Shown: in pieces, positions 63,094 through 63,915 of the stretch
How positions within the stretch are numbered: position 1 is the stretch's first letter
How the letters are laid out: each line of letters starts with the position of its first letter
Assembly: GCF_044324785.1 (NCBI RefSeq)
Contig: NZ_CP172127.1
Direction: 5' to 3' (one strand)
DNA length: 64,000 bases
Source of the DNA: Escherichia coli
GTDB lineage: Bacteria; Pseudomonadota; Gammaproteobacteria; Enterobacterales; Enterobacteriaceae
Translations under genes and position numbers: made by a program
The notes under the pieces: generated by a model
Told to the model about the DNA's origin: nothing
Seen by the model: only the letters and a program-made list of their open reading frames with translations
The model's database searches: none

Positions 63094-63915
63094 TTACCAG
63101 GGGGATAACGGAACCCTGAATAACGCAGTGGGTAATATTTTTCCTGTTATCAGATATTCTGCCTGTGCCGGAGTGAGTGTTACGGCGCGAACAGGGATAT
63201 CCGGAGATATTTTTCGGGCCATCTGAAACCAGCCTTCTTTTTCTATATCCATTCTGACCGGATATAACGAAAGTACCGGATAAATAATGGTGTTATTAAT
63301 TTCTTTTTTCTGCCTGAGCAGAACGCCGCAATATTCTCCGGAATGCGTTCCGGCAAACGGAAAACCATGCCAGAGAATAATGTCCATATTCTCGCGGGCT
63401 GAAATAATCCTGCAGAATATCTCCTGTGTGGCTGGCCAGTCTCCCGGACGATATAGTGGATAATGCACCCTGCCGTTCAGCCATTCCGGACTGAGATAAA
63501 ACCAGTCAGCCAGTGCTGCAAGAATCTCCCCGGTCAGATAGTCAGTGAGTCTGTCCGGCTCCCGGAAGACGGCAGGGCGGATATTCCAGGGGGCCAGTAA
63601 TGCAGCCATCGTTGTTGCGCTGATATCATGTGCCTGCATGATGTGCTCCATCCTGCTGAGAAGACGGCGGACGATGTTATCTGCAGGAAGAAACATTTCA
63701 CTTAACGCGTCTTCGACCAGGATACGCGTCAGGTCAGAGACGGAAAGAGAAAGCTGTTCGCTCATGATACCAAGGGCATCCCTGACTCCCTGCGGATAAC
63801 GAACCTGCAGGGGTGTGGACTGCAGCTGGCGATGACTGAGCAGGCATTCGCAAATTCGCTCCCTGTCCAGGGAGAGCATCATACGGGCGGCAATACCTGT
63901 GCTGTCAGTTTTCAT
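63094..63915 (-). CDS. Hypothetical protein
   Basis: 273-aa ORF with SD GGAGGTG before ATG 63915; no recognised motif. Confidence 0.5.
   Translation of the reverse strand: MKTDSTGIAARMMLSLDRERICECLLSHRQLQSTPLQVRYPQGVRDALGIMSEQLSLSVSDLTRILVEDALSEMFLPADNIVRRLLSRMEHIMQAHDISATTMAALLAPWNIRPAVFREPDRLTDYLTGEILAALADWFYLSPEWLNGRVHYPLYRPGDWPATQEIFCRIISARENMDIILWHGFPFAGTHSGEYCGVLLRQKKEINNTIIYPVLSLYPVRMDIEKEGWFQMARKISPDIPVRAVTLTPAQAEYLITGKILPTALFRVPLSPW

Follow-up and report, generated by a model that had tools for sequence, protein, structure and literature searches.

traE of the IncI-complex plasmids in an Escherichia coli integrative and conjugative element: a conserved traE-traF module with a candidate local regulator

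The right edge of a 64,000-nucleotide stretch of an Escherichia coli chromosome (NCBI RefSeq assembly GCF_044324785.1, contig NZ_CP172127.1), referred to here as the window, holds an open reading frame (ORF) for a 273-aa protein that an earlier note, made from the sequence alone, had called unannotatable. Is this protein new? Or is it a known conjugation protein, and if so, what could it be doing next to the outer-membrane protein gene that is its neighbor? An identical protein is publicly named TraE, and the ORF lies in the canonical slot between rci and traF; on these grounds the ORF is traE of the IncI-complex (I-complex) conjugative plasmids, an already known gene. From its conserved gene order, it is the first gene of an accessory module, made up of an upstream DNA element, traE, and traF, that is common to plasmids of mating-pair formation type I (MPF_I) and to MPF_G-type integrative conjugative elements (ICEs) related to Salmonella pathogenicity island 7 (SPI-7) and ICEPan. 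The predicted fold and the upstream element give about an even chance that TraE acts on the traE-traF module as a local (auto)regulator that binds DNA.

The coding sequence occupies 63094..63915 on the minus strand, with its ATG at 63915-63913 and the stop codon included at 63094, and specifies a protein of 31.2 kDa with a pI of 6.3. A Shine-Dalgarno GGAGG can be read directly at 63920..63924 (minus strand), 4 nt before the ATG. The earlier description of a well-formed ORF with a strong Shine-Dalgarno sequence and no transmembrane (TM) segment is borne out, with the strand now given as minus: the maximum of the 19-residue Kyte-Doolittle window is 0.92, from which no TM segment is predicted, and no signal peptide was found. 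No Pfam-A or NCBIfam family matches TraE at E<=1, and no curated model in either collection recognizes it; searches against the PHROG and PADLOC models likewise gave no match. A chance ORF is ruled out by the conservation of the protein across plasmids and protein clusters.

Over 100% of its length the protein is 100% identical to a protein of CP102114 annotated as 'conjugal transfer protein TraE', and the carriers of the identical protein are IncI1/B/O-type plasmids of Shigella sonnei and E. coli. The copy on pMS7163B (IncK2/Z; 26020-26841) is 99.6% identical, also at 100% coverage. A second plasmid allele group stands at ~76% identity, and traE of the IncI1/I-gamma plasmids at ~54% over 100% coverage (phmmer E 1.8e-91 against the IncI1 cluster). 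When 72,556 plasmids were searched with TraE by tblastn, 1913 had a match, 1879 of them at >=80% coverage, and 1789 were typed as conjugative. A set of 5.8 billion proteins contained 40 TraE clusters, many carrying the NCBI name TraE. Exhaustive phmmer searching extended this to 61 representative clusters at E<=1e-3, the distant homologues being 290-390 aa long, 20-33% identical, and aligned mainly over residues 30-170. The label 'hypothetical protein' given in some records by the Prokaryotic Genome Annotation Pipeline (PGAP) is an annotation gap and no sign of novelty.

The plasmid gene order is pilV, shufflon, rci ('site-specific integrase'), traE, traF, traH, traI, traJ, traK. With 61000-64000 as the query, megablast returned chromosomes of mostly poultry-derived E. 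coli at 99.9% identity, and plasmids of ~85-115 kb at 98.9%, the plasmid alignment beginning exactly at the traF stop codon. The window copy shares with the TraE of R64, ColIb-P9, pESBL, and pMS7163B a length of 273-274 aa, the position between rci and traF, and an upstream palindrome. It differs in being chromosomal, inside an MPF_G ICE at pheV, and in what follows traF: on the plasmids these are type IVB secretion system genes (traH onward), all of which are absent from the window, where an autotransporter fragment, toxin-antitoxin pseudogenes (higA, relE), and insertion sequence (IS) remnants are found instead.

The traE gene of R64 was named in 2000, and it shares only this name with traE of the F plasmid. 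The F-plasmid TraE is a VirB8-like inner-membrane protein of the type IV secretion system (T4SS), bitopic and with an NTF2-like periplasmic domain. The I-complex TraE, in contrast, has no TM segment and no Pfam match, and is predicted to have a helical DNA-binding-like fold and a small alpha/beta domain; no match was found between it and the T4SS component families. The VirB8 homologue of MPF_I is TraM, not TraE, and in the original pESBL annotation, as in some other records, traE is labelled 'F pilus assembly'.

The ORF had also been described as lying after the outer-membrane protein gene. Both genes are on the minus strand, so by the direction of transcription traE is upstream of that gene, which is traF (61790..62992, minus strand). 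It encodes a 400-aa outer-membrane beta-barrel (TraF_2, PF13729, E 5.6e-68) that is distantly PorV/FadL-like, with a sub-threshold match to the NCBIfam family PorV_fam at E 2e-12. The 101-bp spacer between traE and traF contains a small, terminator-like GC hairpin, GGCAC-AGCC-GTGCC, with a weak T-rich tail at 63035..63048 (minus strand; L001 14049-14036), which is a possible attenuator.

Across the loci compared, the traE-traF pair is conserved on MPF_I plasmids and beside the relaxase of MPF_G ICEs, at protein identities of 24-30%, so the synteny check that the earlier note had proposed does find the TraE-like/TraF_2 pair in related ICEs. In the ICE-type loci L006, L010-L012, and L171 the homologues (24-31% identity) follow an integrase and a TraI_2 relaxase, both divergent, and a small membrane ORF, and are themselves followed by TraF_2. 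In L172 TraF_2 comes after the TraE-like gene, and no relaxase is visible in the fetched stretch. In the ICEPan paper, core region 5 includes 'TraE and TraF' together with TraI. The order rci, small ORF, TraE-like gene, TraF, TraH is found on an Enterobacter MPF_I plasmid. Among metagenome loci with >=2.5 kb after the upstream motif, a redundant set dominated by I-complex plasmids, a traE-like ORF follows in 75/79 and then a traF-like ORF in 74/75. The 'TraE' of the SPI-7/ICEPan family of ICEs (ICEclc-ICEHin1056 superfamily, MPF_G) has a homologous full-length architecture, the same TraF_2 partner, and the same palindrome with its box. It differs in sequence (24-31% identity) and in length (290-330 aa, with C-terminal extensions), and it adjoins a TraI_2 relaxase after the small membrane ORF, whereas the plasmid and window traE adjoin rci and pil. 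The module is a shared junction of the I-complex plasmids and the SPI-7-type ICEs. A distant subfamily of 381-388 aa lacks traF; to it belong Hafnia L016, in which the TraE-like gene heads traI-traJ, and L173.

The small ORF (158-211 aa) lies directly upstream of the palindrome and traE in the ICE-type loci and on the Enterobacter MPF_I plasmid (L006 7277-7912; L010 7265-7825; L008 1258-1806; L015 4327-4803). Hydrophobic helices at the N-terminus and a basic C-terminus mark its product, in which an ...EWRW... motif is conserved. The IncI1 and B/O/K/Z plasmids lack this ORF and have rci in its position.

The DNA element upstream of the pair was found by aligning the 260 bp before TraE-like start codons. 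Its consensus is A-N-TCGATC-N5-GATCGA, followed by the box (A/T)(A/T)T(A/T)(A/C)(C/T)(T/C)C-N-(C/T)T. The palindrome of the window, TCGATC-ATAAC-GATCGA, is cut by the window end. The promoter-distal part of the element lies at 63982..64000 (minus strand), with the right half-site GATCGA at 63995-64000 and the box AAATAACTCGCTT at 63982-63994, and the left half-site falls 6-11 nt past base 64000. The element was present in 10/10 independent protein-derived loci that have a TraE-like gene and then TraF_2, at protein identities down to 24-30%. These loci are the B/O/K/Z, I1, and 76%-allele plasmids, the Enterobacter plasmid, and L006, L008, L010, L169, L171, and L172. The half-sites are identical in all ten, and the spacers vary (ATAAC, TGCAT, TACAC, TGAAT, TGACA, TGAAC, AGAAC, GCATT). 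Relative to the annotated start codons, the palindromes begin at -96, -96, -82, -101, -101, -103, -123, -135, -122, and -138. The element is missing from 3 loci of the traF-less subfamily.

Is this palindrome specific to traE? The 84,078-bp plasmid pMS7163B carries exactly one element, with no second copy (<=2 mismatches) above shuffle expectation, and no further copy was found in the window at <=1 mismatch. A scan of 100,044 species genomes with a short pattern gave 30 matches. In four of these (two Citrobacter, one Brenneria, and one Pectobacterium) a traE-like ORF follows 60-90 bp downstream; the remaining 26 are at chance level and in unrelated phyla. One of the 26, in a marine gammaproteobacterium and upstream of katG, resembled an extended match, but it has no traE nearby and was set aside. 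With a stricter pattern, 120 loci were found on metagenome contigs, and a traE-like ORF lies downstream on the same strand in 109 of them; four truncated contigs and seven unrelated sequences make up the other 11.

The palindrome is bordered by short repeats that differ by subfamily: AAACAC(T)CT on the I-complex plasmids, and ATACA or GTATTC-N5-GAATAC in the ICE-type loci. The third copy of the direct repeat AAACACTCTC is at 63964..63973 (minus strand) and the other copies are beyond the window end, the repeats standing at -115 and -58 relative to the ATG. A second dyad is found 5' of the palindrome (L001 15020-15045, beyond the window; also L005, L049, and L082). Its sequence shifts while its symmetry is kept, being GGCGAGTT-GCAAC-AACTCGCC in IncI1, AGAGT-TGCAAAC-ACTCT in B/O/K/Z, and AAAGAGTG-GTTAA-CACTCTTT in variants. 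This dyad could be a second operator, or a terminator hairpin of rci that has no T-tract. Another reading considered was that the palindrome element recruits TraC or TraB, the NusG-like activator of the plasmids. This was rejected because no homologue of either is encoded in the window or in the fetched, partial ICE loci, so that these proteins cannot explain the conservation in ICEs.

What kind of protein might read such an element? The AlphaFold2 model of the TraE monomer, built on an alignment of 45 family sequences (A1), has a mean predicted local distance difference test score (pLDDT) of 88.2 and a predicted template modelling score (pTM) of 0.79. It places helices at 5-15 and 18-27, an extended stretch at 28-41, helices at 42-55 and 59-75, six short helices bundled at 77-146, and an alpha-beta-beta-beta-alpha-beta domain at 164-273. 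The protein can accordingly be divided into N-terminal helices (5-27), a segment like a ribbon-helix-helix (RHH) at ~35-76, a domain like an XRE-type helix-turn-helix (HTH) at ~77-148, and an alpha/beta C-terminal part at ~164-273. Within A1, R88 is invariant and R39, S58, H96, D125, F139, and W145 are found in >=90%. A C-terminal L-x-x-G-x-x-L-P...W motif is also conserved, and therefore the C-terminal domain is homologous across the family as well.

Residues 35-76 are a probable RHH, judging from their pattern and the models. The hallmark layout is there: a strand with polar or basic residues, helix A, a G-x-S turn, and helix B. In the family it takes the form of a P-T-x-V/I-R-Y/L/F-R/K-P stretch, helix A, a G-I-S turn (S-L-S in TraE), and helix B, with R39 near-invariant, R/K45 in 45/45, S58 in 43/45, and G56 in 31/45 (S in TraE). 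Twelve of the 45 members have sub-threshold matches to five RHH families, the best Pfam values among relatives being RelB (E 0.011), RHH_3 (0.047), RHH_5 (0.049), RHH_4 (0.13), and NikA-like (0.14). A profile search of the PDB aligned MazE7 (E 0.027) and CopG (E 0.32) on the RHH-like residues. In an AlphaFold2 model of an artificial tandem construct (residues 1-158, a 25-aa Gly-Ser linker, and residues 1-158 again; alignment A2), strands appear at 36-38 and again at 219-221, the corresponding residues of the second copy; the monomer shows no strand at this position. The local pLDDT in the tandem model is 82-90 and the pTM 0.73. TraE thus resembles the RHH repressors Arc, Mnt, CopG, and MetJ and the regulators TrwA (R388) and NikA (R64) in its strand-helix-(G-x-S)-helix layout, its conserved strand Arg, a tentatively predicted intermolecular ribbon, and, by analogy, a candidate operator whose two inverted subsites are spaced by 11 bp like those of the Arc operator. 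It differs from them in having two extra N-terminal helices, a fused HTH-like domain and a further domain, an acidic character, and no significant match. NikA and TrwA are, moreover, needed for transfer, whereas TraE is not.

The next domain is predicted to have the five-helix HTH fold of XRE/Cro-C1 regulators. On the HTH region of two relatives, the PHROG models phrog_4 ('transcriptional repressor') and phrog_2328 match at E 4.5e-4 and E 2.9e-3, and single relatives have weak Pfam matches to HTH_19 (E 0.095) and HTH_3 (E 0.13). A candidate recognition helix (helix 3), P-W-N-I-R-L-S-V-L, is conserved in the family and might make sequence-specific DNA contacts, although the net charge of the domain is -3. 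The XRE regulators compared (PDB 3op9, 9iaq, C.AhdI 1y7y, ImmR 7t8i, and P22 c2 2r1j) are 8-20% identical to TraE. They differ from TraE in that its HTH-like domain sits in the middle of the protein, between the RHH-like segment and an eL38-like alpha/beta domain, and carries a charge of -3. With Foldseek, nothing in the PDB matched at E<=0.001. The one consistent match, to ribosomal protein eL38 (probability ~1, TM-score on the target 0.63-0.70), was put aside as giving no functional information; it presumably falls on the C-terminal domain through the alpha-beta-beta-beta-alpha-beta topology.

We infer from these features that TraE would be a soluble cytoplasmic protein, with its RHH-like segment, XRE-type HTH-like domain, and small alpha/beta C-terminal domain, that dimerizes through the RHH ribbon. 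The dimer would bind the palindrome TCGATC-N5-GATCGA, whose half-sites lie on the same face of the helix because they are 11 bp apart from center to center. A half-site spacing of 11 bp is the geometry of the Arc operator, to which two RHH dimers bind, and also that of a classical operator for an HTH dimer. The contact would probably extend to the flanking box and short repeats, ~60-100 bp upstream of the start codon of traE itself. Bound TraE would then set the transcription of traE-traF and possibly also, on plasmids, of the genes that follow. The C-terminal domain might serve in higher-order assembly, or in the sensing of a signal or partner.

Published mutant data bear on this proposal. 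In one study, traE of R64 is reported as dispensable for conjugation, and the IncM plasmid pCTX-M3, also MPF_I, as being without traEFG altogether (PMC6112013). In transposon sequencing of pESBL the probability of being non-essential was 0.93 for TraE and 1.00 for TraF (PMC4288162, Table 2). In transposon-directed insertion-site sequencing (TraDIS) of pMS7163B the log2 fold change was +1.95 for traE and +0.93 for traF (PMC10286972, S1 Table A). The traE value is neutral, as compositional enrichment gives most neutral genes scores of +1 to +3; because it lies within that range, it was dropped as a hint of repression. No paper assigning a function to traE was found in the literature search. To our knowledge, the literature searched does not contain the RHH, XRE-HTH, and alpha/beta architecture, the conservation of traE-traF across MPF_I and MPF_G, or the invariant palindrome. 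The genes traE, traF, and traG are parts of the IncI transfer region without an assigned function, present on thousands of resistance plasmids and dispensable in laboratory matings. The predicted regulator-like fold, the pairing with TraF, and the unique invariant palindrome now make the function of traE and traF testable.

Several observations weigh against TraE as a DNA-binding regulator. No RHH family model is significant for TraE (Pfam, no match at E<=1), and no HTH family model of Pfam, NCBIfam, or PHROG matches TraE itself. The remote-homology and structure checks that the earlier note had called for thus gave a DNA-binding-like predicted fold and no significant family assignment. The evidence for a dimer comes from a linker-fused workaround and not from a validated multimer prediction. 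Each putative DNA-binding segment of TraE has a net charge of -3 (in the family, the RHH segment has a median of 0 and the HTH segment one of -3), and acidic segments are unusual for DNA-binding domains. Near the element, the scan for sigma-70-like promoters gave no match on the strand of traE. The TraDIS data show no repressor or activator phenotype of traE in surface mating. Finally, half-site invariance could be counted from the 10 protein-derived loci only; in the motif-derived loci it was discarded as circular because the search pattern required the half-sites. The earlier note had left open whether the protein is a regulator, cargo, or part of an ICE core. Of these, the evidence favors a regulator that is part of a conserved accessory module.

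Could the same features have another meaning? The acidic segments, with their family medians of 0 and -3, and the lack of a significant sequence match to DNA-binding families would suit a TraE that does not bind DNA at all. In that case the RHH-like and HTH-like folds would be scaffolds for protein interaction, and TraE, for example as a cytoplasmic chaperone or adaptor, would act post-translationally with TraF or with an envelope or pilus component, the palindrome being read by something else. The strict gene pairing with the outer-membrane barrel TraF is in keeping with this. TraE, however, is cytoplasmic, without a signal peptide or TM segment, while TraF is an exported barrel. The conserved residues, moreover, are those expected to make RHH contacts with DNA (R39 of the strand, R/K45, and, where helix B starts, S58), and the palindrome co-occurs only with the traF-linked TraE subfamily, as a cognate operator would. 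We regard such a role as unlikely. Less likely again is that the element has nothing to do with TraE and is a site for a host factor, a Dam/SeqA-sensitive site through which expression would follow how far newly transferred or replicated DNA is methylated, or a short hairpin in the leader RNA or single-stranded DNA; this is the alternative to which we give the smallest chance. It has in its favor two invariant GATC sites one helical turn apart, and the fact that the element-bearing loci with an identified host are all from Enterobacterales, ICE-type and metagenome hosts being excluded from that count. The leader RNA does fold into a 6-bp hairpin, with z = -2.3 for the fold of the whole leader. 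Yet any TCGATC palindrome necessarily contains GATC, and no Rfam family matches the traE leader. The stem has zero compensatory changes across loci at 24-30% protein identity, while the spacer and flanks vary, so that recognition of bases is favored over structure. The element is also missing where the TraE-like protein belongs to the traF-less subfamily.

The relatives beside relaxases raise a further question, whether TraE belongs to the relaxosome. RHH proteins such as TrwA, NikA, and TraY both bind the origin of transfer (oriT) and repress transcription. By analogy, TraE could be a relaxosome accessory protein and the palindrome with its box an oriT-like site, or part of one, for a MOB_H relaxase of the TraI_2 type, in which case the I-complex copy would be either a relic or an additional transfer site of the ICE type. 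An oriT is usually built in this way, from an inverted repeat and a conserved box after it. Four independent loci of the ICE type have the element and the traE-like gene no more than ~1 kb from the divergent TraI_2 relaxase and integrase, the grouping of TraE and TraF with TraI in core region 5 of ICEPan points the same way, and one family member has the weak NikA-like Pfam match (E 0.14). But the element stands at a roughly constant distance from the start codon (-82 to -138), which fits an expression signal better than an oriT. On the I-complex plasmids nikB, nikA, and oriT are ~40 kb from traE, which is dispensable for transfer, and in the window ICE the relaxase is ~15 kb from traE, beyond rci and the pil operon. 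A relaxosome accessory gene lies beside oriT and the relaxase and is needed for transfer or strongly stimulates it, and neither the plasmid nor the window traE fits that description. This relaxosome role appears improbable. We are equally doubtful of a broader idea, in which the element, traE, and traF form a self-contained cassette that MPF_I plasmids and MPF_G ICEs, two unrelated conjugation systems, exchange, and the palindrome does more than serve autoregulation as an operator. It would be either a site of ICE-type transfer or processing, for which TraE is the RHH accessory factor, or a switch gated by Dam methylation. If the former were true, IncI-complex plasmids and SPI-7-type ICEs could cross-recognize each other's DNA; if the latter, the outer-membrane protein TraF would be turned on only in newly transferred DNA.

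How has a plasmid gene come to lie in this chromosome? By gene content, most of the window (1-53000) is an MPF_G ICE of the ICEclc/ICEHin1056/SPI-7/ICEPan type. It encodes a TraD/TraG-type coupling protein (25987-28140), a TraC/VirB4 ATPase (34213-37062), and a TraG_N protein (40974-42476), as well as DnaB and topoisomerase III in its left 50 kb; further examples of ICE genes are at 5718-7124 and 15658-17676. The earlier note had described the expected relaxase and integrase as absent here. A P4-type integrase is in fact encoded in the window at 2321-3535 (minus strand), and it may belong to the same element or to a tandem island. No tRNA genes were found within the window. From 48972 to 64000 the window is collinear with E. 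coli CP033635 at 99.8-99.9% identity, and in that chromosome the missing relaxase, of the TraI_2 type, is found beyond the position of the right edge. There rci begins 213 bp beyond traE, ~128 bp past the right edge, and is followed by pilV through pilL, a DUF1187 gene, a UvrD helicase, the TraI_2-type relaxase, a tyrosine recombinase, and tRNA-Phe next to yqgA. In the collinear chromosome the pheV end, with the second recombinase and the relaxase, lies 15-18 kb past the right edge, and rci and the whole pil operon separate the relaxase from traE.

The window traE is, by sequence comparison, the IncB/O/K/Z plasmid allele, and it lies in a pil-rci-traE-traF block of the pheV ICE. Against an IncB/O/K/Z-like plasmid, traF-traE is 98.9% identical at the nucleotide level, rci 96%, and the aligned pil segments 85-96%. 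The high identity of the block points to a recent plasmid-ICE exchange of pil-rci-traE-traF. Finding this plasmid-like block inside an ICE on a chromosome of the avian pathogenic E. coli (APEC) type is direct evidence of recent recombination between the two kinds of element.

Between the restriction-modification genes and traF there is a zone of decay (58600-61750; L001 9600-12650). Its contents are a fragment of IS3, a relE/parE toxin gene with a frameshift, an IS3-family transposase that is split (60205-60853), a pseudogene of higA, and the C-terminal barrel fragment of an autotransporter. It is in this zone that the plasmid-type tra genes usually found after traF (traH onward) have been lost. 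A 337-aa ORF at 58859-59872 (plus strand) is intact; its product has C-terminal TM helices and no Pfam or NCBIfam match. In several ICE relatives, defense-like or conflict genes come right after traE-traF, including GAP1-N1/DO-GTPase/GASH and CTD10/MC6/DUF2326 sets (L006 13173-16996; L172 4261-7576; L010 12078-14961). Their placement suggests a hotspot for cargo behind traF, which would match the decay and cargo zone of the window.

The restriction-modification genes are of type III, with mod at 56331-58367 and res at 53413-56328, both on the minus strand. A perfect (GTTGC) x 30.6 array lies at 58425-58577, 58-210 bp upstream of the start of the methyltransferase gene. The number of units is 30 in the window, 25 in CP033635, and 13 in CP182371, chromosomes that are otherwise 99.8-99.9% identical. 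In its sequence and variation the array looks like a phase-variable tract, subject to slipped-strand mispairing, in the promoter or leader of mod-res.

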